DNA from: Thermoanaerobaculia bacterium
Lineage (GTDB): Bacteria; Acidobacteriota; Thermoanaerobaculia; Gp7-AA8
NCBI GenBank assembly: GCA_034665065.1
Contig: JAXDGL010000008.1
Location: 319,412 to 383,411 of the forward strand
Direction: 5' to 3'
DNA length: 64,000 nt
Part shown: in pieces, positions 7,255 through 57,125 of the stretch
How positions within the stretch are numbered: position 1 is the stretch's first letter
How the letters are laid out: each line of letters starts with the position of its first letter
The notes under the pieces: generated by a model
Databases searched by the model: none
Told to the model about the DNA's origin: nothing
The model's input: the letters and a program-made list of their open reading frames with translations, nothing else
Program-made: the position numbers and the translations under genes

Positions 7255-7537
7255 TTGATTGCGCTTCGCGCGTTGTCGGTTGTCGGTTGGTTGCGCTTCG
7301 CGCGTTGTCGGTTGTCGGCGCTTCGCGCCTTTTCTAGAACGATCCTGCCCCGTCTTGGGCGGCGAGTATTCCAAGCATGAAGAGTTCGATCAGCTCCCGA
7401 ATTCGACACTGGCGCAGACAACGCGCGAAGCGCAATCAACCGACAACCGACAACGCGCGCAGCGCAATAAGACAACGCGCGAAGCGCAATCAACCGACAA
7501 CCGACAACGCGCGAAGCGCAACAAGCGCAGCGCAATA
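7255..7537. repeat. composite direct+inverted repeat of a ~36-bp GC-rich unit
   Basis: Unit TTGATTGCGCTTCGCGCGTTGTCGGTTGTCGG occurs twice in direct orientation (7255-7328) and twice as reverse complement (7419-7537). Can fold into a long hairpin with a ~90-nt loop. Confidence 0.8.
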
Positions 7538-8406: not shown

Positions 8407-8606
8407 AAAATGTTGAATGTTGAATGTTGAATGTTGAATGTTGAGTGTTGATCGTGCGCCGCCATCCTCCGTTCGTTCAACACTCAATACTCATCATTTA
8501 CAATTTAATGAATCCAACATTTAATATCCATCATTTAACATACAATATTAACATCCGCCATTTAACACTCAACATTTAACATTCAACATTCAACATTCAA
8601 ATGTTC
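8407..8606. repeat. AT-rich imperfect palindrome built from TTGAATG heptamer arrays
   Basis: 5x tandem TTGAATG (8409-8445) and its reverse complement CATTCAA x3 (8580-8606) flank a ~120-bp AT-rich core carrying repeated CATTTAACA-like motifs. Sharply lower GC than surrounding DNA. Confidence 0.8.
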
Positions 8607-14007: not shown

Positions 14008-14169
14008 GCCCTGGACATACTCCAAGGGCGGTACCATGCAAGAATCTCAGTAGAATCAACGACTTAGTAAATCGTGCGCGATTTGAACGTCGCGAAATCA
14101 GACAGAGTGTCCTGATATCGTACGGTGAGAGATTCGCCTGATCGCGTGTATAGTCCGCCCAGTTCTTTC

Positions 14170-14335
14170 CCAATTTCTCTGAGTCAGTGAACGGGAAGCC
14201 GGTGTGATGCCGGCGCGGCCCCCGCCACTGTGACCGGCGACAACTCGCTCCACGATAGCCACTGCATCTACCGATGCGGGAAGGCGGCGCGACGAGGATG
14301 ACCCGGAAGCCAGGAGACCGGCTGGCTCGGAACCC
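14170..14335 (+). ncRNA. cobalamin (AdoCbl) riboswitch
   Basis: GGGAAGCCGGTGTGATGCCGGCGCGGCCCCCGCCACTGTGACCGG … GGGAAGGCGG … B12 box GAAGCCAGGAGACCGGC, directly upstream of the btuB-like receptor. Confidence 0.8.
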
Positions 14336-14371
14336 ACTTTTGATTCTCTTCTTCGGAGGGAAGGAGTCGTC

Positions 14372-33869: not shown

Positions 33870-36002
33870 ATGTCCATTCACGCGCGTGTCGACGCGCTCC
33901 TCGGGCGGCTCGCTTCCACGCCGCAGTTTCCCACGCAGGGTCAGACGATTTTCGTCGACCTCGAGCGTCAGGAAGTGCGGCGCGCCTACATCCCCCTCCG
34001 CGTCGTCGAATCGCTCCTCGGCGGTCGCGGCGTGAACATGTACCTCCTCCACAACCTGCTCGATGAGACGCTCGATCCGATTCATCCTCACATTCCGCTG
34101 ATCTTCGGCACCGGCATCCTGACCTCGATGGTGCCGTCGGCGTCGCGCGGCAATGTGACGTCGTGGTCTCCTGAGTCGCGCGTCCTGATGGATTCGAACG
34201 CCGGCGATTACTTCCCGTCGTTCATGAAGCTCAATGCGATCGATCACCTCGTGCTCTACGGCAAAGCTGCGAAGTGGACGCTGCTTCATTTCGAGGGGAA
34301 CGAGCCGAAGTTCATCGACGCCGCGCCGTGGGTCGGTCTCGACAACATCGATCTTCGCGAACGGATCGCCGCAGATTTTCACGGGGTCGAAGGGAAGGAC
34401 TACGGACTCGCTGCGATCACGACCGCGGGCGAGAATCTCGTCCTCTGCTCCGGCATCATGGCCGGTCCGAAAGCCATCTACGCGCGCGGCGGTCCGGGCG
34501 CAAAGATGGGCGGACTGAATCTAAAAGCAGTTTTGATTCAGGGGCGTGCCGCCGATCTCACCACCGCGCGTCCGCACAAACTGCGCAATCGCGACGTCGC
34601 GCTCAAGCTCCTCTCGACATCCGTCGTCAAGAACGCGCTGAAGAAACGCGGTACGCCATTCCTCTACAAACCCTCGCGCATGCTCGGCGCGATGGGAACG
34701 AAGAACAACCAGGAGACGACGTGGACCGATAAGCTCGACGCCGAGAACATCGACCCGTACCGTCCCGGGATGGAGGGTTGCTTCGCCTGTCCGGTGAATT
34801 GCCGTCCGCTGAATGACATGAGTGGGGGTGGGGAGTGGGGAGTGGGGAGTGGGGAGTCTTCTGTGCGGGAGTCGGGAGTCGGGAGTCGGGAGTCGGAGAG
34901 AGAAACCTTCGTCCACTCAGTGCGTGAACAGAAAGCAGAACTAGAGAGCGGAGAGCGTGAGAATGTTGACGCGCTGCATTCCGCTCCGACCCTCGACTCC
35001 CGAAAACCGACTCCCGCGCCAGACAAATACATCAAAGGCGACGGCCCCGAGTACGTCACGCTCGGCAAGTTCGGACCGAACATCGGCATCAGCGAAGTCA
35101 CGCAGGTTCTTCGTCTCAACAACATCTGTAACGACCTCGGGCTCGATACCGCGTCCGCTGGATCTGCGATCGCATGGGCGATGGAGCTGTATCAGCGTGG
35201 CATCATCACAATCGAGCAGACGAAGCTCGATTTGACGTGGGGCAACTACGACGTGATCGAGCAGTTGTTGTTCATGATCGCGAAACGCGAGGGGATCGGT
35301 GACGCCATCGCTGATTCGTCGCAGGCCGTGGCCAACGGCAAGTATCCCGCTGAAGCGCTCGACTATCTGATGGCGGTGAAAGGACTGACACAGAGCGATC
35401 CTCACGACGCGCGCATTCTCAAGGCGTTCGCGCTCGGACTCGCCGTTGCCACGCGCGGGATGGATCATCTTCGCAACCGCGTCACGCTGGAGATCAACGC
35501 CAAAATCAACGACTCGCCGGATTTCAAAGCGGAGTTGTATGGCGGCGCCGTGTCCGCGGAGCCGAACAGCTACGAAGGCAAAGAGATCGCTGTCCGCCGC
35601 TGCGAGAACATCTACGCGGTCGGCGATTCGGTGGGCATGTGCCGATTCACGACGAAGCTCTTCAACTCGCCGTCGTTGCCGGGCTATCCGGAGTTCGTCG
35701 ATCAGGTGGCGAACGTCACCGGCATCGAGCTGACGAACGAACAGATCGACCACATCGGATTAAACGTCATGGGCGTCGAGCGTCTCATCAATCAGAAGAT
35801 CGGCGTGACGCGCGCGGATGACACGCTGCCGAAACGCTGGTTCGAAGAAGCAATCGGGGTCGGTCCGTACAAGGGCGAGAAAATCGATCGCGGCGAGTTC
35901 GACAAGATGCTCTCGCGCTTTTACGAGATCTCGAACCTGACCGCGGAAGGCCTGCCGAAGCCGGAATGGCGCGAAGAGCTCGAAGAGGTTCTGGCGTCAT
36001 GA
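33870..36002 (+). CDS. aor: aldehyde:ferredoxin oxidoreductase (tungsten/molybdopterin AOR family) with ~70-aa in-frame repeat-derived insertion
   Basis: AOR N-terminal domain. 4Fe-4S Cys motif GCFACPVNC. AOR-like C-terminal domain. 710 aa, versus ~600-aa AORs recalled from memory. Confidence 0.85.
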   Translation: MSIHARVDALLGRLASTPQFPTQGQTIFVDLERQEVRRAYIPLRVVESLLGGRGVNMYLLHNLLDETLDPIHPHIPLIFGTGILTSMVPSASRGNVTSWSPESRVLMDSNAGDYFPSFMKLNAIDHLVLYGKAAKWTLLHFEGNEPKFIDAAPWVGLDNIDLRERIAADFHGVEGKDYGLAAITTAGENLVLCSGIMAGPKAIYARGGPGAKMGGLNLKAVLIQGRAADLTTARPHKLRNRDVALKLLSTSVVKNALKKRGTPFLYKPSRMLGAMGTKNNQETTWTDKLDAENIDPYRPGMEGCFACPVNCRPLNDMSGGGEWGVGSGESSVRESGVGSRESERETFVHSVREQKAELESGERENVDALHSAPTLDSRKPTPAPDKYIKGDGPEYVTLGKFGPNIGISEVTQVLRLNNICNDLGLDTASAGSAIAWAMELYQRGIITIEQTKLDLTWGNYDVIEQLLFMIAKREGIGDAIADSSQAVANGKYPAEALDYLMAVKGLTQSDPHDARILKAFALGLAVATRGMDHLRNRVTLEINAKINDSPDFKAELYGGAVSAEPNSYEGKEIAVRRCENIYAVGDSVGMCRFTTKLFNSPSLPGYPEFVDQVANVTGIELTNEQIDHIGLNVMGVERLINQKIGVTRADDTLPKRWFEEAIGVGPYKGEKIDRGEFDKMLSRFYEISNLTAEGLPKPEWREELEEVLAS
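34822..35028. repeat. intragenic heptamer-array palindromic element (GGGGAGT / CGGGAGT arrays)
   Basis: GGGGAGT x4, CGGGAGT x3, then inverted CTCCGACCCTCGACTCCCGAAAACCGACTCCCGCG. Translated as MSGGGEWGVGSGESSVRESGVGSRESERETFVHSVREQKAELESGERENVDALHSAPTLDSRKPTPAP inside the AOR. Confidence 0.75.
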
Positions 36003-42906: not shown

Positions 42907-43791
42907 ATGAACAAACTCTCCAGTGACGCCCGCGCCCGCATCATCATGGCTCTGATCGAAGGCAACTCGATCGCGTCTACGTGCCGGATGACGGGCGCGG
43001 CAAAGATGACGGTGCTGAGTCTCATCCGCGAAGTCGGCACCGCATGCGCCGCGTTCCATGACGCGGTTGTGCGCGACCTCGCAACGGAGCGCGTGCAGGC
43101 CGACGAAGTATGGTCGTTCTGCGGCATGAAGCAGAAGAACGTCCCTGCCGACTTGCAAGAGACGGTCGGCATCGGCTCGATCTGGACGTGGACGGCGCTT
43201 GATGCGGACACGAAGCTGATGATTTCTTGGCTGGCGAGTAACCGTAGTGCGGAAGCTGCGAACGCGCTCCTCGCTGACCTCAAGTCCCGCACGTCGGCAT
43301 CGAACGAAATCCAAATCTTCTCGGATGGACTGGCGTAGTACATCGATGCGGTCCGGCAGAGCTTCGCACCCGGTGAAGCGAACCTTGGTCAAGTCGTGAA
43401 AACCTACGAAACCAGTAGTCCGCAGCCGGGCATGAATCCGAACAGTGCGGCGAGTAGGTATTCACCGGGACGCCTGCTCTCGATCGAGAAAACTGCACCT
43501 CTCGGCACGCCGGACATGAAGCACGTTTCGACCTCGTTCATGGAGCGGTTCAACCTCACGCTCCGCATGCAGAACCGGCGCTTCACGCGCCTGACGAATG
43601 GCTTCTCAAAGAAGTTCGAGAACCATTGCCACATGCTTGCAATGACGATGGTTTACTACAACTTCTGCCGGAAGCATCAGTCACTGAAGGGCCGGACGCC
43701 CGCGATGGCGGCGGGACTTACCGAGTATCGTTGGACGGCGGCGGATCTGCTGTCGCTGGAGATGTGGAGCGCGGCGGAAGCGGCAGCCTAG
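42907..43791 (+). mobile_element. IS1-family DDE transposase interrupted by a single in-frame TAG
   Basis: Recalled similarity to E. coli IS1 InsA HTH (ARIIMALIEGNSIASTCRMTG) and InsB (DEVWSFCGMKQKN; …IFSDGLA*YIDAV…; ERFNLTLRMQNRRFTRLTNGFSKKFENHCHMLAMTMVYYNF). ORFs 42907-43338 and 43396-43791 share a frame; the TAG at 43336-43338 is the only interruption. Confidence 0.75.
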
Positions 43792-44037: not shown

Positions 44038-44176
44038 ATGTTACAACTTCCACTTCAAACTAGACCACTACCCAGATGTGTGCAAATGGACGGTTTCATC
44101 TGCGCCGATGTTGGTCCGCGACACAGGTGTATGCAGAGGAAGGGCTTATCTGCGAACATCTGCGTCATCTGCGGAT
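44038..44176. repeat. right terminal inverted repeat of the island
   Basis: CATGTTACAActtccactTCAAACTAGACCACTACCCAG…ATCTGCGAACATCTGCGTCATCTGCGG is the reverse complement of 38241-38334, with a ~50-nt indel. Confidence 0.7.
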
Positions 44177-44865
44177 CAAACTGGTTCGGCGATGAACCGG
44201 TAGCCAACCCATGGCTCGGTCACGATGTATTGCGGCTCGGAGGGATTGGGCTCGATTTTCTTACGCAGTGAGCTCATGTGAACGCGCACGGTGTCGGCGC
44301 TCGTGCTTGGAGCGGAGCGCCAGACGCGGGCGATGATCTGCTCGATGAACATCGGCTTCCCCGCGTTTGTGGCGAGCAGCTCCAGCAGTGAGAATTCGGT
44401 CGGGGTGAGGCGCACTTCGCGGTCGTCCTGCACAACTCGGCGGCGTTCGAGGTCGATGGTCAGGTCCGGAAACGCGAGAGTGGTCGCGGTGGGCGTCGTG
44501 GTCCGGCGGAGATGGGCGCGGACGCGGGCCAGGAGCTCGGCCATGGAGAAGGGCTTGGTCACGAAGTCGTCGGCGCCGAGGTCGAGGGCTCGGACTTTGT
44601 CGGCATCGGCGCCGCGGACGGAGAGCACGATGATGGGTATTCGCGATGTTGCGCGAATGCCGGCGATCAAATCGAATCCGTCCGAGCGCGGCATGGCAAG
44701 ATCGGTCAGTACGAGATCGGGCGCCTGCGATTGAAACGCGCCTATCGCTTCGCTTCCGTCGGCCGCGGTCGATGTCGTGTAGCCGGCTGCGCGGAGTTCT
44801 TTCGACAGCGATTCGCGAATGGCGGGATCGTCGTCGGCGATGAGAATCACGTTCGAGATGGTCAT
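44176..44865 (-). CDS. OmpR/KdpE-family response regulator
   Basis: Receiver domain (ILIADDDPAIRESL…DLVLTDLAMP) and winged-helix output (RLTPTEFSLLELLATNAGKPMFIEQII…VWG). Confidence 0.9.
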   Translation of the reverse strand: MTISNVILIADDDPAIRESLSKELRAAGYTTSTAADGSEAIGAFQSQAPDLVLTDLAMPRSDGFDLIAGIRATSRIPIIVLSVRGADADKVRALDLGADDFVTKPFSMAELLARVRAHLRRTTTPTATTLAFPDLTIDLERRRVVQDDREVRLTPTEFSLLELLATNAGKPMFIEQIIARVWRSAPSTSADTVRVHMSSLRKKIEPNPSEPQYIVTEPWVGYRFIAEPV

Positions 44866-46352
44866 GAAGATTCCTCGCCTGTGAGTAATGCTGCGGGAAG
44901 ATCGATGCGCGCGATGGTACCGCCGCCCGGCCGCGGTGCCAGTCCAATGCTGCCGCCGTTTGCCGCGGCAAGGCTGCGCGCGATCTCCAGCCCCAGTCCG
45001 CGCTGGGCAACGTCGGCGGTCTCCGTTGCCACGTTGCCATCAGCGTCGACGACGCCTGGCGGGAGCCCAGGTCCGCGATCGAGAATCTCGATGCGCACTT
45101 TCTCGTGATCGAGTGGATGATTGCGCGCCACGAGCTCGATCGGTGCCGCGGCAGGAGAAACGCGGTGGGCGTTTTCGAGGAGGTTGACCAGAATCTCCAG
45201 CGCCAGTGAGGGATCGACGTTGGCGTCGGCGCAGTCAGGCTCGACGTGCAGCGTGATCGGGCGTGCGCTGAAGACGATCGGCAGGTTTTCGCGCACGGCG
45301 CGAAAGAGATCGGCGGGAGGTGTCGGCTCGCGCCGCGGTTTTGCTTTTCCAGCTTCGAGCCTCGCCATCGCCAGCAGGTTGTCGATGCGCCGCCGCAGGC
45401 GCGCGGTCTCTTCCGCAATTGCCGCGGCATCTTCGAGGAGCTCCGGATCGGCACCGGCACGGCGGCGAATCGACTCGGTGCGGATCGTCACGGCAGTGAT
45501 CGGCGTGGTGAGATCATGCGAAATGGCTCGAAGAAGTGATGTCTTGAGCGCTTCGCTTTCGCGCAAGGCCTGGACGTGCGCGTTCTCTTCGATGAACCGT
45601 TCACGCTCGACTGCCAGGGCCACAAGGCGCGATGCGGATTCCAGTGCCTGCTTCGATGCTTCGGTTCCGCGGGCGACCAGCGCTCCGGTGGTCTTGCCGC
45701 CGACGATGAGCGGGAGATAGACATCGCGGCCCAGAGGCGACGGAAACTCCAAAGGCTCCTTGTGCCGGCCCACGCCGGCGATCAGGTCTTCGATCTCCTC
45801 CGGCTTGTCGCCGATCCAGGAGATGACGTTCTGCCGGAAGGGGCTGCCATCGAAGAGGACGAGTCCTCCGCCGCGCGCGCCGAGGAGTTGCAGGGCACGG
45901 CCGGCGGCTTCGCCGAGCGCGCCGACGCGGTTGGAAGCAGTGAAAAGGTCGATGCTCAATCCGTAGAGCGTCTCCAGCTCCATGCGCCGCTGCTCCGCCT
46001 TCTCCGCCTGGACACGCGCCGCGACGACAAGGCGGTTCACGGTGACGGATGCGATGAGAAATGACGCAAGCGCGAACCAGTTGGCCGGGTTCTCGATCGT
46101 GAATGTGTAAAGCGGCGGAAAAAAGAAAAAGTTGTAGCAGAGGGTGGCGATGACCGAAGAAACCGTTCCGGCCAGCAGTCCGCCCCACACGGAGATCAAC
46201 AGGACGACGATGAGGTAGGCGAAGCCGATCGTGCTTGGGTTCAGCCCGAGGGCGCTGCCAGCGGCGGTGACGAGAGCGAGCGATCCCAGCGCTCCGGTCC
46301 AGATGCTCACCTGTCTGGTTTGGCGGATCATGCGGGAAACAGTGAAACACAA
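44862..46352 (-). CDS. sensor histidine kinase, KdpD C-terminal-like (DUF4118-GAF-HisKA-HATPase)
   Basis: 4 TM helices, GAF-like segment, H-box LRAISHDLTTPITAV, HATPase G-boxes (ILDRGPGLPPG; GLGLEIARSLAAANGGSI). Lacks the KdpD N-terminal sensor domain. Confidence 0.85.
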   Translation of the reverse strand: MCFTVSRMIRQTRQVSIWTGALGSLALVTAAGSALGLNPSTIGFAYLIVVLLISVWGGLLAGTVSSVIATLCYNFFFFPPLYTFTIENPANWFALASFLIASVTVNRLVVAARVQAEKAEQRRMELETLYGLSIDLFTASNRVGALGEAAGRALQLLGARGGGLVLFDGSPFRQNVISWIGDKPEEIEDLIAGVGRHKEPLEFPSPLGRDVYLPLIVGGKTTGALVARGTEASKQALESASRLVALAVERERFIEENAHVQALRESEALKTSLLRAISHDLTTPITAVTIRTESIRRRAGADPELLEDAAAIAEETARLRRRIDNLLAMARLEAGKAKPRREPTPPADLFRAVRENLPIVFSARPITLHVEPDCADANVDPSLALEILVNLLENAHRVSPAAAPIELVARNHPLDHEKVRIEILDRGPGLPPGVVDADGNVATETADVAQRGLGLEIARSLAAANGGSIGLAPRPGGGTIARIDLPAALLTGEESS

Positions 46353-46445: not shown

Positions 46446-46500
46446 CTCGGTTCCTGGAGTCCTGGACTAATGTCGATACCTTTGTCTATACTATTTGTTC

Positions 46501-46740
46501 ATGAAGGAGAGGGCAAAGATTTTCCAAAACGGAGGAAGCCAGGCAATCAGGCTTCCGAAGTCCTGCCGCTTTGATGACGGCCAGCATGAGGTGCTCGCCA
46601 AGCGTGTTGGCCGCCGTGTCATCCTGGAAGTGGCCGATGAGTGGACCGACGACTTTATCGCGGCGCTCGGCGCATGGAAAGAGTCGATCGAGAGGCCCCG
46701 TTCTCGGAGCATTTCAAAACTGAGAGATCCATTTGAATGA
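46501..46740 (+). CDS. vapB: VapB antitoxin (AbrB/SpoVT fold)
   Basis: MKERAKIFQNGGSQAIRLPKSCRF… is the AbrB-type swapped-hairpin N-terminus. 4-bp overlap with vapC. Confidence 0.8.
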   Translation: MKERAKIFQNGGSQAIRLPKSCRFDDGQHEVLAKRVGRRVILEVADEWTDDFIAALGAWKESIERPRSRSISKLRDPFE

Positions 46741-47135
46741 GCCTGGCGTTCATGCTCGACACCGATACCGTGAGTTTCGCCTTGCGCGGACAAGGGCGGG
46801 TCGGCACCGCTATCCTCAAGCACCGTCCTTCTGATCTCTGCGTGAGTGTTATCACTGTGGCCGAGTTGCGTTACGGCGCGACGCGGCGCAAGTCGGCAAA
46901 GCTGCATGAGCTGATCGGCACATTTACGCGCAACGTGGAAGTCGTGCCATTTGATGACCCCAGTGCTCTGGAATTCGGACGCATCGCCAGCCATCTTGCA
47001 GATGCCGGTTCACCAATCGGCGAGCTCGATACCCTGATTGCTGCACATGCGATGAGCCTTGATCTGACACTCGTTACGAACAATGGGAAGCATTTCGGGC
47101 GCGTGCCGGGACTGAGGCTTGACAACTGGTTGTAG
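46737..47135 (+). CDS. vapC: VapC PIN-domain toxin
   Basis: MLDTDTVSF…ITVAELRYG…LDTLIAAHAMSLDLTLVTNN conserved PIN acidic residues. Confidence 0.85.
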   Translation: MSLAFMLDTDTVSFALRGQGRVGTAILKHRPSDLCVSVITVAELRYGATRRKSAKLHELIGTFTRNVEVVPFDDPSALEFGRIASHLADAGSPIGELDTLIAAHAMSLDLTLVTNNGKHFGRVPGLRLDNWL

Positions 47136-47320
47136 CCGGCGCCTACCATCGCTGCCGACCGAGGCGCGAGACCAATCGTTGCCGTTTCATCACGCCGGTT
47201 CCGTGCAGCTGCGAATCGAGCCCGGACATTTTTTCGATGAATCTGGCACCATTGCATCCAATCGTTCATCGTCGATCGTAAGTCTGCCGGTACGCAAAAC
47301 AACTTGAAGAGGAGATTTCT

Positions 47321-47683
47321 ATGAATAGCCGTGATCTTGCCCGTTATCTCGTACTCGGTGGTGTCGTCGCCGGCCTGACCGCCGGAACCAATCTGCGTGC
47401 CGGCCAGACGAAGTCGTCCGCGCTTTCGCTCAACCAGTCGTCGCAGGCCGTGAAGATGGCCGACACTGCGAAGGCTGCTGACAAGCACGCCTGTAAAGGC
47501 CTCAACGGCTGTAAGGGCCAGGGCGCCGACGGCAAGAATGAATGCAAAGGCCAGGGTTCCTGCGCGTCGAAGGAGTACAAGCACGACTGCGCCGGCCAGA
47601 ACGCCTGCAAGGGCCAGGGCGCTGGCGGCAAGAACGAGTGCAAAGGCAAGGGCGGCTGCGCCGTTCCGCCGAAGGCGTCGTAG
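47321..47683 (+). CDS. Cys/Gly/Lys-rich secreted RiPP-precursor-like protein (bufferin-like, 8 Cys)
   Basis: Signal peptide, then two half-repeats CKGLNGCKGQGADGKNECKGQGSCA / CAGQNACKGQGAGGKNECKGKGGCA (8 Cys). Immediately upstream of a DUF692/MNIO gene. A rho-independent hairpin follows (CCGGGGACGGGCgaatGCCCGTCC). Confidence 0.65.
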   Translation: MNSRDLARYLVLGGVVAGLTAGTNLRAGQTKSSALSLNQSSQAVKMADTAKAADKHACKGLNGCKGQGADGKNECKGQGSCASKEYKHDCAGQNACKGQGAGGKNECKGKGGCAVPPKAS

Positions 47684-47721
47684 TAGTTCCGCTCCCGGGG
47701 ACGGGCGAATGCCCGTCCTTT

Positions 47722-47862
47722 GGGGTGGGGAGTGGGGGTGAAGTTAGAAGGGTGAAGAGTGAAGAGTGAAGAGTGAAGGGTGAAGAGTGAAAGTAAGACA
47801 ACTAATCCCTCTTCACACTTCACACTTCACTCTTCACACTTCACCCCTACTCCTCACCCCCA
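47722..47862. repeat. heptamer-array palindrome (GGGGAGT / GTGAAGA arrays)
   Basis: GGGGTGGGGAGTGGGGGTGAAG…GTGAAGA x5 … inverted TCTTCAC x4 …CCCCTACTCCTCACCCCCAC. Lies between the precursor gene and the MNIO gene. Confidence 0.75.
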
Positions 47863-47869
47863 CAAAACC

Positions 47870-48859
47870 ATGAATCGATTCCAACTTCCTGACCTTGGTA
47901 TCGGCATCGGCCTGAGGACCGTGCATTACGCGCACATCCTCGACAACGATCCGGCCATCGACTGGTTCGAAGCGCTCTCTGAGAACTATCTCGATACTGG
48001 TGGCCGTCCGCGTTACGTGCTCGAGAAAATCGCGGAGCGCTATCCGATCGTTCTGCACGGCGTGTCGATGTCGATCGGCGGAACCGATCCGCTCGACTTC
48101 GACTACCTTCGCAAACTGAAAGCGCTGGCACGTTCCGTCAATGCGCGCTGGATCTCCGATCATCTCTGCTGGACTGGAGTCAGCGGCCGCAACGTACACG
48201 ATCTGCTACCGATGCCTTACAACGAAGAGTCGCTTCGTCACACCGCGGAGCGCGTGCGGACCGTTTCCGAATTTCTGGAGACGCCGCTCGTCGTCGAGAA
48301 TCCATCGTCGTACGTCGAGTTCAAAGCATCGACGATGACGGAGTGGGATTTTCTCGCCGCGCTGGGCGAGCAGAGTGATTGCGGCTTGCTCCTCGACGTG
48401 AACAACATCTACGTCAGCTCGTTCAATCACAGTTTCGATCCGAATACCTACGTCGACGCGATCCCCGCCGACCGCGTCGTACAGGTTCATCTCGCCGGCC
48501 ACGCCAATCACGGTACGCACATCATCGACACGCACGACAACTTCGTGATCGACGAGGTGTGGCAGCTCTACGCACGCGCTAGCGCACGCATCGGCAATGT
48601 CTCGACGCTGATGGAGTGGGATGCGGATATCCCCGATTTCGAGACGGTGCATGCCGAGGCGCGGAAGGCGGAGGCGTTTCGTGAATCGGGGAGTGGGGGG
48701 TGGGGAGTGGGGAGTGGGAGAAAAGGCGATACGCTCCAAGCTGCGATCGCCGAGTCGCAAGTAGAAGACTCAGCGCCCGCCGAAACTCCGGTCCTCTTAT
48801 CCCCGAAACCCGACCACCGACATGCGACTCCCGCAACAGAGGCTCCCCTTGCCATCTGA
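47870..48859 (+). CDS. DUF692 / MNIO family enzyme (MbnB/BufB-like) with repeat-derived C-terminal extension
   Basis: MNRFQLPDLGIGIGLRTVHYAHIL…DWFE…ENY xylose-isomerase-like TIM-barrel signature of DUF692. The C-terminal ~55 aa (…ESGSGGWGVGSG…SPKPDHRHATPATEAP) is encoded by a GGGGAGT-family repeat (48686-48850). Confidence 0.85.
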   Translation: MNRFQLPDLGIGIGLRTVHYAHILDNDPAIDWFEALSENYLDTGGRPRYVLEKIAERYPIVLHGVSMSIGGTDPLDFDYLRKLKALARSVNARWISDHLCWTGVSGRNVHDLLPMPYNEESLRHTAERVRTVSEFLETPLVVENPSSYVEFKASTMTEWDFLAALGEQSDCGLLLDVNNIYVSSFNHSFDPNTYVDAIPADRVVQVHLAGHANHGTHIIDTHDNFVIDEVWQLYARASARIGNVSTLMEWDADIPDFETVHAEARKAEAFRESGSGGWGVGSGRKGDTLQAAIAESQVEDSAPAETPVLLSPKPDHRHATPATEAPLAI

Positions 48860-49661
48860 TCTCGCGCTGGCGCCGTTGCAGGAATGGATGCAGGCCGTCG
48901 TGACGCATCCCGGTGACGTGCACGACGCTGCCAAAGCGGCGGCGATCGATATCGACTCGATTGTGCTGCCGTCGAAAACGTTGCAGCCGCTGCAGCGCGT
49001 TGGCATCTATCACAGCATGTATTTGCTGCGGATGATCGAAGCGCTTGAGATCGATTACGCCGCGCTCGCGCATTTCATCGGCGGGCACGCGTTCGGGCAT
49101 CTCGTGTCCGACTACGTACAGCGCTTTCCATCCCGAAGCTGGACGTTGAACCGGCTCGGCGATCATCTCCCCGAGTTCATCGCCGGCTCGACGATGAAGC
49201 GGCGTGTGTTTCTCTCCGAGATGGCGCGGCTGGAGCTGGCGATGACGCATGTGTTCGAGGCGGAGGAAGCCGAAGCACTGCCGGCGGACGCGATCGGTGC
49301 GGTGCCGCCGGACAAGATCGAGACGCTTCGCTTCACGCCGATTCCCGGACTCCGGCTTCTGGAATTCGGGTACCAGATCAACGACGCGTTTCAGTCGTGG
49401 CGCGAAGAACGCGTCGTCACACCGGTGCGCGGGAAATCGTGGCTTGCCGTTCATCGACGCAACTACGCCGTCTTTCGCATGCCGCTCTCGAAGGAGGCGT
49501 TCGCATTTCTCGACGCACTCATTTCTGGCGAGACGATCGGTGGTGCGATCATGATGTTTCGCCGCCGGTTTCGGCGGATGCCAGAACAGCAGGAGCTTTT
49601 CGGCTGGTTCCGCGACTGGAGCGAGGCGGGACTCTTTGCAGCAATCGACGCCACCGGATAG
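48822..49661 (+). CDS. DUF2063-family protein (MbnC/BufC-like)
   Basis: 279 aa. Overlaps the MNIO 3' end. LQEWMQAVVTHPG… N-terminal region typical of DUF2063 partners of DUF692. Confidence 0.7.
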   Translation: MRLPQQRLPLPSDLALAPLQEWMQAVVTHPGDVHDAAKAAAIDIDSIVLPSKTLQPLQRVGIYHSMYLLRMIEALEIDYAALAHFIGGHAFGHLVSDYVQRFPSRSWTLNRLGDHLPEFIAGSTMKRRVFLSEMARLELAMTHVFEAEEAEALPADAIGAVPPDKIETLRFTPIPGLRLLEFGYQINDAFQSWREERVVTPVRGKSWLAVHRRNYAVFRMPLSKEAFAFLDALISGETIGGAIMMFRRRFRRMPEQQELFGWFRDWSEAGLFAAIDATG

Positions 49662-49670
49662 GAGAACGCG

Positions 49671-50147
49671 ATGATCGGCAAGCTGGTGCAGTGGTACGAC
49701 GTGGTCATGTCGCGCGGATTCGACAAGCTCCGCAGTCCTCTGCTGCTCGCGCTTCGTTTGATCTTCGGTTGGGGACTCTTCCAGACCGGTAAGGGCAAGC
49801 TGGAGAACATCGACCGTTTCACCGACTTCCTCACACATCTTCACATTCCAATGCCGGGTTTCAACGCGCACTTCGTGGCGACACTCGAATGCGCCGGCGG
49901 TTTGCTTCTGCTCATCGGCCTGGCTTCGCGACTGATCGCGATTCCTCTGACGATCAACTTCATCGTTGCGTACCTCACCGCCGATCACGAGGCGCTTGTG
50001 GGGTTTTTCAAAGATCAGGAAGCGTTCACGAGCGCGGCGCCATTTCTTTACCTGCTCGTTTCGCTGATCGTGCTCGCGTTTGGTCCCGGACTCTTCTCGC
50101 TCGACGCGCTCATCCGGCGCGTTTTTCTGCGCCGCCGGACGGCCTGA
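49671..50147 (+). CDS. DoxX-family membrane protein
   Basis: 4 TM helices (LLALRLIFGWGLFQTGKGKL…). Last gene of the operon. Confidence 0.8.
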   Translation: MIGKLVQWYDVVMSRGFDKLRSPLLLALRLIFGWGLFQTGKGKLENIDRFTDFLTHLHIPMPGFNAHFVATLECAGGLLLLIGLASRLIAIPLTINFIVAYLTADHEALVGFFKDQEAFTSAAPFLYLLVSLIVLAFGPGLFSLDALIRRVFLRRRTA

Positions 50148-50205
50148 GCGGCGACTCACCTATTGGCCGTCAAGCCGTTCGAGAACGTCCGGGCGCATTT
50201 CGGGC

Positions 50206-50691
50206 TCACTCGGCGTCGATGCAGAGGTTCGTGTTGGTGGTGACGGCAGCCGGTGCTTCCTCGATCAGCCGGCGTGCGCCGGCGAAGCGCCGCGCCCAAT
50301 GCGTGGCATTCAGCGAGGCGATGGCGACGCCGTGCCGCGCGGCGTGAACGAAATGCCCGCCGCCGATGTAAATGCCGACATGCGAAATTCCTCGAAGGCG
50401 GCCTCCGTGAAAGAAGACGAGATCGCCCGCTATCAGCTCCTCGCGTGCGACGGCGCATCCCTGCTTGAATTGGCGCGCCGCCGTTCTCGGCAACGCGACA
50501 CCGACGACGCGAAATGCGCGCTGCACGAGCGCTGAACAATCGAGTCCCTTCGGCGAATCGCCGCCGAGCCGGTACGGGAAGCCGGCAAACGTTCTGGCCA
50601 TCTCGACGACCATCGTCGTGGCCGGCGCGGCTCCGGTCGATTGCGCTGATGCAGTCGTCGTCACACCGCACGCCAGAAATAAAACCAGCAT
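50206..50691 (-). CDS. NlpC/P60 (C40) peptidase lipoprotein
   Basis: Internal start MLVLFLACG (lipobox). YRLGGDSPKGLDCSALVQRAF…GDLVFF…ISHVGIYIGGGHFVHA carries the Cys/His catalytic motif. Confidence 0.7.
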   Translation of the reverse strand: MLVLFLACGVTTTASAQSTGAAPATTMVVEMARTFAGFPYRLGGDSPKGLDCSALVQRAFRVVGVALPRTAARQFKQGCAVAREELIAGDLVFFHGGRLRGISHVGIYIGGGHFVHAARHGVAIASLNATHWARRFAGARRLIEEAPAAVTTNTNLCIDAE

Positions 50692-50694
50692 CAG

Positions 50695-51099
50695 CACGAG
50701 CGATGAAGATTGCCTGCTTCTCTCACGCGGGCGGCTGACACAACGATGGCGGCACTCGCCGCAGTTGAATAGATGCGCGGTCACGAGACTCCCCGCTCCG
50801 GTGAACACGAGAACGGTCTCCGCCGGCCCGTGCAGAAGCAACCTGCTTCCGATGATCGCGGCCAGCCCGGCGCCGATGCCGATCCGCGGAAGCAATGCGC
50901 CATTGCGGCGGAACGACGCGCGTATGGCGGAGAGGCCGATGAGCAGGGAAATGCCGGCGATCCATGTCTCGGCGGTTTCGCTGTGCTTCGCGGCCGCCGG
51001 AAGCGAAACGAGAATCAACGGCGTGGCCAGACAGTGAATGGCGCAGAGGATGGATACTGCAGCTCCGGCGCGGTCGATCCTCGTCTGCGATGTTTGCAC
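50695..51099 (-). CDS. MerC-like membrane domain (in-frame with the NlpC/P60 gene, no intervening stop)
   Basis: ILCAIHCLATPLIL…FNCGECRHRC. Paired Cys motifs at both ends of a 4-TM segment, as recalled for MerC mercury transporters. Confidence 0.4.
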
Positions 51100-56750: not shown

Positions 56751-56835
56751 TCGAGTTGATTATGACGAGAAGGTTCCGACCTGCAAGGCGAGGCCGGTGA
56801 ATGGTTGGTTTCGGGTGATGAATGGTTGGATCTTG

Positions 56836-56998
56836 CGGTTGCGCGGTTGCGCGGTTGCGCGGTTGCGCGGTTGTGAGGTTACGGAGTTGCGAGGTTTCTG
56901 AGTAGATCCTTCGCAGCAACCCAGCAACCCAGCAACCCGGCACCTCAGCACCTCAGCAACCAACAACTCAGCAACCGCGCGAGACCGCAACCCACTGC
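56836..56998. repeat. imperfect palindrome of GGTTGCGC octamer arrays
   Basis: GGTTGCGC x4 + GGTTGTGAGG… then inverted CAGCAACC x3, CAGCACCT x2…. Confidence 0.7.
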
Positions 56999-57027: not shown

Positions 57028-57125
57028 GGAGGCGAATGGGGTCTGGTGGCTCCCGCGGTCTTCAAAACCGTTGTTTCGGCGCGGAAGCGTCGAAGGGTCG
57101 GTTCGATTCCGACGCGCCTCCGCCA
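57028..57125 (+). tRNA. selC: tRNA-Sec (selenocysteine, anticodon UCA)
   Basis: 98 nt. Acceptor GGAGGCG(A)/GCGCCTCC, 6-bp D-stem with 4-nt loop (GGGGTC-TGGT-GGCTCC), anticodon loop CTTCAAA (UCA), long variable arm, T-arm GTCGG-TTCGATT-CCGAC, discriminator G, CCA. Confidence 0.8.

Follow-up and report, generated by a model that had tools for sequence, protein, structure and literature searches.

Among the RiPPs modified by MNIO enzymes, bufferins (captophorins), which are small, secreted, copper-binding proteins, form the largest group and provide a widespread bacterial defence against copper stress. Their clusters are characterized by a BufB-type MNIO and the strict order of precursor, MNIO, and DUF2063 partner, often with a DoxX gene, which is a frequent but not obligatory core gene (Leprevost 2024, Antoine 2025). 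In Buf1, a disulfide links Cys I and IV; in Buf2, Cys I and VI carry no modification and are probably joined by a disulfide, whereas the central Cys show a mass change of −4.03 Da (PMC11626156). The published descriptions of Buf2 include only forms with 6 or 12 Cys.

The locus described here comes from a Thermoanaerobaculia bacterium (Acidobacteriota) and lies in a window of 64,000 nucleotides, the whole stretch of DNA that was analysed. The preliminary description had proposed a bufferin-type operon, and this was borne out by the order bufA–bufB–bufC–bufD and by an MNIO scoring above the curated BufB threshold. The four ORFs were all present where that description had placed them, on the + strand between positions 47321 and 50147:

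47321..47683, + strand: bufA, ORF encoding the 120-aa precursor; stop codon TAG, immediately followed by a second in-frame TAG
47870..48859, + strand: bufB, MNIO (DUF692) bufferin maturase, 329 aa from the ATG
48822..49661, + strand: bufC, DUF2063 partner (PME-type 1), 279 aa
49671..50147, + strand: bufD, DoxX-family membrane protein, 158 aa

This gene content and order was observed directly, as were the family assignments given below. We consider it very probable that the locus is a functional bufferin-type (captophorin) RiPP operon, bufABCD, that acts by the mechanism proposed below. Its precursor is an undescribed but modest variant: where published forms have 6 or 12 Cys, it has two tandem 4-Cys repeats.

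Modular structure of the precursor and its relationship to Buf2

The BufA protein contains 8 Cys with spacings of 5, 10, 5 / 8 / 5, 10, 5, and the composition of its 62-aa core includes G15, K11, C8, and A7. Four segments were distinguished:

47321..47401, + strand: predicted signal peptide, residues 1–27 (MNSRDLARYLVLGGVVAGLTAGTNLRA), predicted cleavage between LRA and GQ
47402..47482, + strand: variable Ser/Ala/Gln/Lys linker, residues 28–54, mean identity 0.44
47483..47569, + strand: module 1, residues 55–83 (KHACKGLNGCKGQGADGKNECKGQGSCAS), with Cys58, 64, 75, and 81 in the pattern C-x5-C-x10-C-x5-C
47579..47665, + strand: module 2, residues 87–115 (KHDCAGQNACKGQGAGGKNECKGKGGCAV), with Cys90, 96, 107, and 113, 21/29 identical to module 1

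The two halves were identical at 21 of 29 protein positions and 66 of 87 DNA positions. When the core was shuffled 2,000 times with its composition preserved, the highest half–half identity was 11/29, so the duplication is real and not an effect of composition. The 8-Cys, internally duplicated precursor of the preliminary description was therefore upheld, and its half-site motif matched half 1 exactly but not half 2, which begins with CAG rather than CKG. The inner Cys of both modules lie in an N-x-C-K-G context and the outer Cys in KH-x-C and G-x-C-A contexts. K-G follows six of the eight Cys, NACKG occurs at residues 94–98, and K-C-G is absent. NACKG is among the common captophorin 5-mers of the Cys-Lys type, and because of its C-K-G and N-A-C-K-G motifs BufA falls in the published Cys-Lys captophorin group, with an MNIO and a PME1 partner adjoining it (PMC13097082). 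AlphaFold2 gave no confident fold for BufA with alignments of 21 and 57 sequences (mean pLDDT 44.4 and 47.9; pTM 0.17–0.20), and because these models were so poor, we claim no disulfide geometry.

A total of 786 homologues were found, so bufA is a real, conserved gene. The sole family match of the precursor in NCBIfam was BufA2 (NF050166; E = 1.2e-07, 31.8 bits, in two stretches), below the cutoff of 60. Pfam returned nothing at E ≤ 0.01 or even at E ≤ 1; DUF2282 is thus not matched, in agreement with the earlier opinion that the precursor is not of the DUF2282/Buf1 type. With 8 Cys in two 4-Cys modules, BufA lies outside the definition of Buf2 by six or twelve Cys; its homology to the BufA2 modules is seen in the BufA2 match and in 60–75% identity to 6+4 forms, which share its predicted signal peptide. 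In a MAFFT alignment, the 4-Cys module fell on the 6-Cys Buf2 module of the relatives; a single gap of 8 residues and a change from Cys to Ala distinguished the two. Read from this alignment, each BufA module is a 6-Cys Buf2 module with positions I, II, V, and VI and without the central III and IV. On the sequence evidence, BufA is a homologue of Buf2/BufA2 (BUF_6/12Cys) in a reduced-module form, and not an isolated new class.

Members of the clade carry 6, 4+4, 6+4, or 6+6 Cys, and the relatives at 60–75% identity to BufA have 6+4 or 6+6. The 6+6 relatives scored 58.7–67.3 bits on BufA2, at or just below the cutoff of 60 and above it, and every form with 4-Cys modules scored 22–44.5, below the cutoff. 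Across approximately 1,100 representative clusters, 4-, 5-, and 6-Cys modules were freely mixed; the 4+4 combination was rare (4 of 150 representatives) and the 4-Cys module alone was common. A crude neighbour-joining tree of 101 clade members, with the central part of module 1 excluded, required at least 11 parsimony changes between module 1 forms, a count from which we draw no firm conclusion on the polarity or recurrence of the 6-Cys and 4-Cys forms because the alignment is too short for a reliable tree. The supplements of PMC12452194, checked for the BufA sequence motif, list accessions only and no sequences.

This series bears on the suggestion that BufA represents an undescribed class, an independent substrate of a bufferin-type MNIO whose chemistry or metal may differ. 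The precursor does score below the BufA2 cutoff and lacks a Pfam model, its relatives are annotated as "hypothetical protein" by NCBI and JGI, and published Buf2 proteins have only 6 or 12 Cys. Nevertheless, the sequences run continuously through 6+4 forms to 6+6 forms near or above the cutoff, BufA2 is the sole family match, the motifs agree with the published Cys-Lys group, and the MNIO is an ordinary BufB. We therefore regard a distinct class as unlikely, and the undescribed precursor subclass of the preliminary description gives way to a Buf2 homologue with 6+4 and 6+6 forms in its own clade.

A joint reading, which we put forward only tentatively as one possibility, is that of a modular Buf2-like superfamily in which 4-, 5-, and 6-Cys modules in one to three copies are combined with a leader/export N-terminus. 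In such a superfamily, the modules would be interchangeable, and how many metal sites a protein has, and of what type, would depend on which of them are combined; the 4-Cys module would represent a natural minimal site of two thiooxazoles plus a disulfide, converging on the stoichiometry of Buf1. The 4+4 protein would then be a two-site metallophore missed by current models and annotation pipelines.

Operon conservation, enzymes, and neighbouring genes

The linkage of the precursor to an MNIO was observed directly: an MNIO gene lay directly downstream in 71 of 80 species-representative loci from several phyla, nearly always followed by a DUF2063 gene, and all 4+4 loci with enough downstream sequence contained bufBCD (L001–L004, L007, and L087). 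It has a bearing on whether BufA could be an unmodified, secreted metallothionein-like metal or redox buffer with free thiols or disulfides, the MNIO being merely adjacent or acting on another target. Such a role would suit the low-complexity core and its lack of a confident fold, and approximately 8 of the 80 related precursor genes had no MNIO within 5 kb (L034, L035, L038, L045, L050, L052, L065, and L069). However, the bufA–bufB–bufC order recurs across several phyla, bufferin precursor genes are known to occur as orphans, the MAG of at least one orphan (L045) has a complete operon elsewhere (L053), and another (L065) is cut off by the contig end. The conservation of the predicted signal peptide also points to a recognition function, and we consider an unmodified buffer very improbable.

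BufB matched the NF050167 MNIO_BufB model over its entire length (profile positions 1–262 of 262) with 365.1 bits against a cutoff of 310, and PF05114 (DUF692) at 4.5e-109, as anticipated for the ORF at 47870–48859. It scored 259 bits on the HvfB model (cutoff 360) and 45 on MbnB (cutoff 325), and it matched PDB 3BWW at 1.5e-54. The protein has a C-terminal extension of approximately 50 aa, which includes a GSGGWGVGSG insert encoded by (GGGGAGT)4; the heptad repeat in bufB lies at 48688–48718. A GTG at 47780, upstream of the ATG, is an improbable alternative start, given that the match to the BufB profile sets in at residue 11 of the protein read from the ATG. BufC matched PF09836 (DUF2063) at 5.5e-14 over residues 19–120 and HvfC weakly (19.6 bits); no PDB sequence match was found for it. 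The start of bufC lies within the end of bufB, an overlap suggestive of translational coupling; an alternative TTG at 48849 is the start called by JGI in L087. BufD matched PF07681 (DoxX) at 2e-17 and the HvfX family with 60.1 bits (cutoff 80), and a DoxX gene follows bufC in the closer relatives only. An oxazolin/fontiphorin-type (Lys-Cys, EGKCG-repeat) captophorin is scarcely credible: although the precursor is Gly/Lys/Cys-rich and repetitive, HvfX is the best NCBIfam match of the DoxX protein, and HvfC is the sole one of the partner, both matches are below their cutoffs, the MNIO passes the BufB and not the HvfB cutoff, the Cys-Lys polarity is the wrong one, there is no 17-residue repeat, NACKG substrates were not processed by a Lys-Cys-type enzyme (PMC13097082), and the absence of the EGKCG motif refutes this reading at the sequence level.

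Upstream of bufA, a two-component pair is separated from the operon by a toxin–antitoxin insertion:

44176..44865, − strand: OmpR-type response regulator (RR), part of a histidine kinase (HK)/RR pair (44176..46352) upstream of bufA
44862..46352, − strand: DUF4118/HisKA histidine kinase, KdpD-like, adjoining the response regulator
46495..47135, between the HK/RR pair and bufA: inserted VapBC pair, with VapB and VapC matches

Orthologues of this HK/RR pair, 84–88% identical, occur on the opposite strand upstream of bufA in L001–L004 and L007, and in L005 and L006 the place directly upstream of bufA is taken by a different, same-strand HK/RR pair; the pair may possibly regulate the operon. Neither a SigF/NrsF pair nor any cop or cus gene occurs in the conserved neighbourhood, which gives no specific pointer to copper. 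The preliminary description had called the flanking genes metal-themed, and the domains are indeed present: MerC (fused to NlpC/P60), a TonB-dependent receptor, and PadR. Among 86 related loci, however, the MerC–NlpC/P60 fusion and PadR had no counterpart, and the TonB receptor had one weak, non-orthologous match (24.6% identity, L014). The flanking genes were rejected as part of the system, and they are no evidence on its function, because none of the 86 loci shows synteny between them and the operon.

Candidate expression signals, predicted leader, and predicted maturation

The sequence around and behind bufA contains the following elements:

47253..47290, + strand: candidate promoter, a conserved block with CATCCA (47255–47260), a 16-nt spacer, and CGTAAG (47277–47282)
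47310..47314, + strand: ribosome-binding site AGGAG at a distance of 6 nt from the bufA start codon, read from the sequence
47687..47730, + strand: GC-rich stem-loop with the core GGGGACGGGC-GAAU-GCCCGUCC, found by folding, directly after the bufA stop
47732..47863, + strand: very long hairpin with inverted GTGAAGA / TCTTCAC heptamer arms, a lineage-specific, length-polymorphic insertion

The CATCCA and CGTAAG blocks were both kept in the window, L007, L001, and L003, and their layout might correspond to an ECF-like promoter. A scan of 46900–50400 for sigma-70-type promoters found none, and a TGGCAC..TTGCA-like string upstream of bufA was rejected as a sigma-54 promoter, its element spacing being 3 nt too short. 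GGAGGAG or AAGGAG occupies the position of the ribosome-binding site in L001, L005, and L007.

The whole 186-nt bufA–bufB spacer folds at −116.3 kcal/mol (z = −12), and among 68 loci, 74% had a structured spacer at this place (z < −2), with a median z of −3.4. A hairpin homologous to the stem-loop at 47687..47730 occurs at the equivalent place in L001 and L007, and the stem-loop is probably an attenuator or mRNA-stabilizing hairpin that sets the precursor:enzyme ratio. In the long hairpin, L007 has homologous outer arms and a different inner sequence, and L087, otherwise identical over 6.3 kb, carries two extra heptads. Terminator-like sites were not above shuffle expectation and none fell in the spacer, where the hairpins lack a U-tract; the stem-loop was not called because no T-run follows it. 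A scan of the whole window at the Rfam gathering thresholds found nothing in the operon, with a cobalamin riboswitch, a tRNA, and a tRNA-Sec elsewhere.

The BufA N-terminus has a positive n-region, a hydrophobic core at residues 9–17 (Kyte–Doolittle 1.5–2.3), and a small residue at −1; the n-, h-, and c-regions and the site between LRA and G were read by eye and from the hydropathy profile. Among 101 relatives, the observed conservation was 85% for the predicted signal peptide versus 44% for the linker behind it (entropy 2.0 bits in the linker versus approximately 0.5 bits in the signal peptide and modules). Because of this difference, the predicted signal peptide probably also serves as a leader or recognition sequence, which agrees with the proposal that it is part of the BufB–BufC recognition sequence (PMC12452194). 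More than a third of the relatives have a twin-arginine-type N-terminus, judged by the motif alone, and an HMM check of the relatives for Tat signals gave no TAT_signal or TIGR01409 matches. If functional, these N-termini would mean Tat rather than Sec export of already modified or folded bufferins.

What follows is a mechanism that we infer, from the chemistry and the choice of modified Cys to the metal, the route of export, and the function of the hairpins. BufA would be synthesized as a 120-aa pre-protein whose conserved N-terminal 27 residues act as both a Sec signal peptide and a recognition element for the BufB–BufC complex. In the cytoplasm, BufB, a multi-iron oxidase, and BufC, a DUF2063/RRE-type partner, would convert selected Cys to 5-thiooxazoles by 4-electron oxidation. 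After Sec export and cleavage behind Ala27, the 93-residue product would chelate excess copper in the periplasm, and the stem-loops between bufA and bufB would probably raise the precursor:enzyme ratio. From the pattern in Buf1 and Buf2, we predict thiooxazoles at the inner Cys in N-x-C-K-G contexts (C64, C75, C96, and C107), and the outer pairs C58–C81 and C90–C113 should form disulfides, so that each molecule would contain two metal sites and weigh 20 Da less than the 9188.2-Da core. The earlier expectation of −4 Da at all eight Cys is probably wrong, since on the model of Buf1 and Buf2 modification should be confined to the inner Cys of each module.

Comparison with described systems

The picture of how bufferin systems work is unchanged by this locus. 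Its significance lies in the finding that a considerable share of the family escapes both the published definition of "6 or 12 Cys" and the curated BufA2 model, all forms with 4-Cys modules falling below the cutoff and being annotated as hypothetical proteins. The 4+4, 6+4, and 6+6 forms in one clade, with near-identical leaders and enzymes, constitute a natural series suited to asking which Cys are selected by the MNIO and how many thiooxazoles are needed per metal site.

The locus shares with Bufferin 2 (Caulobacter vibrioides CCNA_03001, BufB2, BufC2) homologous Cys-Lys-rich modules, an N-terminal signal peptide (predicted here), the BufB-type MNIO and DUF2063 partner in the order A–B–C, a module duplicated in tandem, like that of the 12-Cys forms, and a cluster without a sigma/anti-sigma pair, as published for Buf2 clusters. 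It differs in having four Cys per module rather than six (III and IV are missing; 8 Cys in total), in its DoxX gene, which the Caulobacter buf2 cluster lacks, and in two predicted thiooxazoles per module versus four. Bufferin 1 (BufA1, DUF2282; CCNA_03363–03366) also has four Cys per unit, with an outer disulfide and two inner thiooxazoles (predicted here), in a bufABCD operon that includes DoxX and produces a periplasmic copper chelator (again predicted here). In contrast, the BufA described here does not match DUF2282, has another Cys spacing, comprises two tandem units, has a low-complexity Gly/Lys core for which no fold was predicted with confidence, and has no SigF/NrsF nearby.

Oxazolin, fontiphorin, and gonophorin (HvfA, FonA; Buf_EGKCG) resemble this system in having an MNIO together with a DUF2063 partner and a DoxX-type protein, in their repetitive Gly/Lys/Cys-rich precursor, and in its secretion and 5-thiooxazole chemistry (both predicted here), but they carry K-C-G where BufA has C-K-G, their 17-residue EGKCG repeats are absent from BufA, and the MNIO is below the HvfB cutoff. 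Methanobactin (MbnA/MbnB/MbnC) likewise depends on Cys oxidation by an MNIO to a copper-binding heterocycle/sulfur pair, which is predicted here. However, BufB scores only 45 bits on MbnB (cutoff 325), the partner is DUF2063 and not MbnC, and the operon has no conserved association with transport or uptake genes; methanobactin is a leader-cleaved, secreted chalkophore peptide made from a short MbnA precursor, whereas BufA is a small protein bearing a predicted signal peptide.

Operon genes and repeat hairpins

The preliminary description had placed four ORFs here in the order precursor, MNIO, DUF2063 and DoxX, and all four were found at their expected positions:

47321-47683, plus strand: bufA, precursor, 120 aa
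47870-48859, plus strand: bufB, MNIO, 329 aa
48822-49661, plus strand: bufC, DUF2063 partner, 279 aa; an in-frame TTG at 48849 is the JGI start on the same contig
49671-50147, plus strand: bufD, DoxX, 158 aa

An AGGAG ribosome-binding site lies 6 nt upstream of bufA, which ends in a double TAG stop. The bufB product is an MNIO: it matched Pfam MbnB_TglH_ChrH (4.5e-109) and, across all 262 profile positions, NCBIfam MNIO_BufB (365.1 bits), exceeding the cut-off of 310. The HvfB model gave 259 bits against a cut-off of 360, and the ApyH, ChrH and MbnB models each scored well under their own cut-offs. The solved structure nearest to BufB was 3BWW (1.5e-54). The bufC and bufD products matched DUF2063 (5.5e-14) and DoxX (2e-17), respectively. 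The architecture had been called correctly, and the operon is a real and complete bufferin operon.

In terms of linkage, an MNIO gene lay directly downstream of the precursor gene in 71 of the 80 species-representative genome loci that encode relatives, and in nearly all of these a DUF2063 gene came next. Among the exceptions, L065 lies at a contig end and L045 is an additional copy in a MAG that also carries a complete operon (L053). All 4+4 loci with sufficient sequence (that is, those whose precursor has two tandem 4-Cys modules) contained bufBCD, and DoxX followed bufC only in the closer relatives. In two 6+4 relatives (L005/L006, 10086-11147), DoxX and a methionine sulfoxide reductase A domain (MsrA, 1.2e-53) form one fused gene, a hint that BufD-type proteins may act in redox repair.

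The metal-themed flanking genes, cited earlier in favor of the bufferin reading, did not hold up as evidence. No related locus contained an equivalent of the MerC-NlpC/P60 fusion or of PadR, and for the TonB-dependent receptor these loci yielded a single match, weak and non-orthologous; as far as synteny can tell, these genes are chance neighbors of the operon. The fusion ORF (50206-51099, minus strand) is itself an odd combination, with a MerC domain (8.4e-18) at the N-terminus and an NlpC/P60 peptidoglycan endopeptidase domain (3.5e-28) at the C-terminus. In the closest relatives, the opposite strand upstream of bufA encodes an OmpR-type regulator and a DUF4118/HisKA kinase (84-88% identity); the regulator is at 44176-44865 in the window. 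A role of this pair in regulating the operon is possible, although this is a guess from gene position. In the window, a VapB/VapC (PIN) toxin-antitoxin pair (46495-47135, plus strand) is inserted between this two-component system and bufA; no such pair was present at that position in L001-L004 or L007.

The bufA-bufB spacer is highly structured: in the window it folds at -116 kcal/mol (z = -12), and over 68 loci the spacer had a median z of -3.4, with z < -2 in 74%. Directly 3' of the bufA stop lies a short GC hairpin that has homologues in L001 and L007. The spacer hairpins lack a U-tract, and in the simplest reading the spacer is a putative partial terminator or stabilizer favoring precursor over enzyme. 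It contains one of five long intergenic hairpins in the window; in each, short tandem repeats arrayed in inverted orientation make up the two arms, and the unit differs from site to site. They are listed here with other noncoding features:

7255-7525, 8409-8600 and 34820-35010: long hairpins, intergenic
47732-47863: long hairpin, intergenic, (GTGAAGA)n/(TCTTCAC)n, between bufA and bufB
56835-56976: long hairpin, intergenic, octamer repeat
57028-57121, plus strand: tRNA-Sec, 71 bits, directly after the octamer-repeat hairpin
14168-14340, plus strand: cobalamin riboswitch, 113 bits
42719-42792, plus strand: tRNA, followed by transposase-like ORFs at 42907-43791

Other hairpin units were (AATGTTG)n/(CAACATT)n (z -9.6), (GCGGTTGC)8/(CAGCAACC)8 (z -4.4) and GGGGAGT/CGGGAGT (z -3.4), and no Rfam family matched any of the five. 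Over 6.3 kb, a second assembly of the same contig (L087, JGI 3300044807) differed from the window only in the right arm of the bufA-bufB hairpin, where it had two additional heptads (14 nt; window 47811-47844 versus L087 3363-3563). This array either varies in length within the population or was collapsed in assembly. The G-rich heptad GGGGAGT, which forms the outer arm of the intergenic hairpin and occurs again at 34825-34855, is also present as (GGGGAGT)4 within the 3' end of the bufB coding region (48688-48718). There it encodes GSGGWGVGSG, the opening of a C-terminal extension of approximately 50 aa; BufB has 329 aa in the window, compared with 280 in L001 and 310 in L003.

A duplicated precursor related to Buf2

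The bufA product contains 8 Cys with spacings of 5,10,5 / 8 / 5,10,5. In its 62-residue core, Gly accounts for 24% of residues, Lys for 18% and Cys for 13%. Residues 55-83 and 87-115 were identical at 21/29 positions (66/87 in the DNA), whereas the best half-to-half identity in 2,000 shuffles of the core was 11/29. Low complexity therefore does not explain the internal duplication of this 8-Cys, KG-rich precursor, which is real, as first noticed.

Of the two precursor families proposed for comparison, DUF2282 gave no match; the Pfam scan as a whole was empty, and the precursor is therefore not Buf1. The sole NCBIfam match was BufA2 (BUF_6/12Cys), in two stretches (1.2e-07); its score of 31.8 bits falls short of the cut-off of 60. 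A MAFFT alignment of the 4-Cys against the 6-Cys module contained a single 8-residue gap and one Cys-to-Ala change:

CKSHGNCKSGDAGCAGKNSC (6-Cys module)
CKGQ--------GADGKNEC (4-Cys module)

On this alignment, the 4-Cys module keeps Cys I, II, V and VI and lacks III and IV. On the curated BufA2 model, 6+6 relatives scored 58.7-67.3 bits, spanning the cut-off; all proteins with a 4-Cys module scored 22-44.5 bits, and a single-module 6-Cys protein of the same clade reached only 36.9 bits. The window precursor is thus a Buf2 homologue that falls outside both formal limits of its family, namely the HMM cut-off and the 6/12-Cys count.

Predicted signal peptide and product

Conservation of the predicted 27-residue signal peptide (85% identity, 0.54 bits entropy) matched that of the Cys modules, whereas the linker was variable (44%, 2.0 bits). 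Such conservation is in keeping with a published proposal (PMC12452194) in which the signal peptide belongs to the sequence recognized by BufB-BufC. Among the precursor ORFs of L007-L086, at least 30 of 80 BufA2-like precursors had an N-terminal twin-arginine motif (e.g., MDRREFTKVMG, MNRRDFNKL; in L010, L012, L019, L020, L022, L027 and L028, among others), and approximately 18 of 80 had a lipobox-like Cys. The TAT_signal HMM gave no match, and the observation is one at the level of the motif. The accessible bufferin literature speaks only of Sec signal peptides, and neither "Tat" nor "twin-arginine" occurs in PMC12452194. The N-terminus of the window precursor, MNSRDLARYLV (47321-47365), looks like a degenerate twin-arginine motif.

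In Caulobacter, BufB and BufC turn Cys into 5-thiooxazoles (-4 Da each) ahead of Sec export; in Buf1 the outer Cys are disulfide-bonded and the two inner Cys modified, and in Buf2 the four central Cys are modified and Cys I and VI unmodified (PMC11626156). Transferred to the module map, this pattern would make C64, C75, C96 and C107 thiooxazoles and would pair C58-C81 and C90-C113 as disulfides. The sequence contexts agree, the four inner Cys all lying in N-x-C-K-G and the outer ones in KH-x-C and G-x-C-A. AlphaFold2 yielded no model usable for checking the predicted pairing. The product would comprise residues 28-120, with an average mass of 9188.2 Da less approximately 20 Da and two metal sites.

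Module architectures and comparison with known bufferins

A precursor search against 5.8 billion proteins returned 786 matches, the best 120 of which were examined by sequence and Cys spacing. These came mostly from soil metagenomes and Acidobacteriota/Thermoanaerobaculia MAGs; the nearest genome was a Thermoanaerobaculia MAG (L007, 86% identity), and a 453-kb JGI metagenome contig matches the window. Among these 120, one clade shared the N-terminus MNS[RK][DE]LARYLVLGG and differed in module content: 6+4 (66), 4+4 (36), 6+6 (2) and single 6 (a few). A profile search of 1.84 billion representatives (E <= 0.001) gave 1,134 clusters, in which the window clade was essentially a single 50%-identity cluster (P0034).

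Architectures in the best 150 of the 1,134 cluster representatives
4+5: 55
6+6: 31
single 4: 19
5: 11
6+4: 6
4+6: 5
4+4: 4

By these counts, the 4-Cys module is common in the superfamily and the 4+4 combination is rare.

The 4+5 proteins (P0121-P0262, 55 of the 150), together with L047 (Blastopirellula marina) and L052, form a large and apparently mostly planctomycete subfamily with precursors of approximately 150-200 aa. They combine a Tat/lipobox N-terminus with a 4-Cys and a 5-Cys module, and their C-terminal tail (VPLM..AW.KAR..FE..MK..GK..G.AP) is conserved and helix-like. They scored 23-25 bits on BufA2, all under the cut-off. Five representatives from the profile search (P0175, P0195, P0233, P0257 and P0262; 357-410 aa) begin with a region that is DoxX-like in length and hydrophobic character. 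A Tat-like segment comes next, then a bufferin-like domain of the 4+5-Cys type, and these proteins would be candidate DoxX-precursor fusions. MerC-Buf and cytochrome-Buf fusions have been published, and no mention of a DoxX fusion was found in that account (PMC12452194).

In the literature, 90% of Buf2 proteins have 6 Cys and the others 12, and MNIOs of the same cluster adjoin unclassified signal-peptide ORFs with 1-18 Cys (PMC12452194). A 2026 paper calls such precursors "Cys-Lys" captophorins, with NACKG as a common 5-mer (PMC13097082); this 5-mer occupies residues 94-98 of the window precursor. In the accessible bufferin and captophorin literature, no passage was found that explicitly describes a 4-Cys module or precursors with 8 or 10 Cys. 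We expect the precursor to cause specialists no surprise, and its main value lies in annotation and in the natural series it offers for studies of Cys selection. The earlier suggestion of an undescribed subclass holds only in part: rather than forming a new class, the precursor belongs to the known Buf2/Cys-Lys family as a variant with reduced modules (4+4 Cys).
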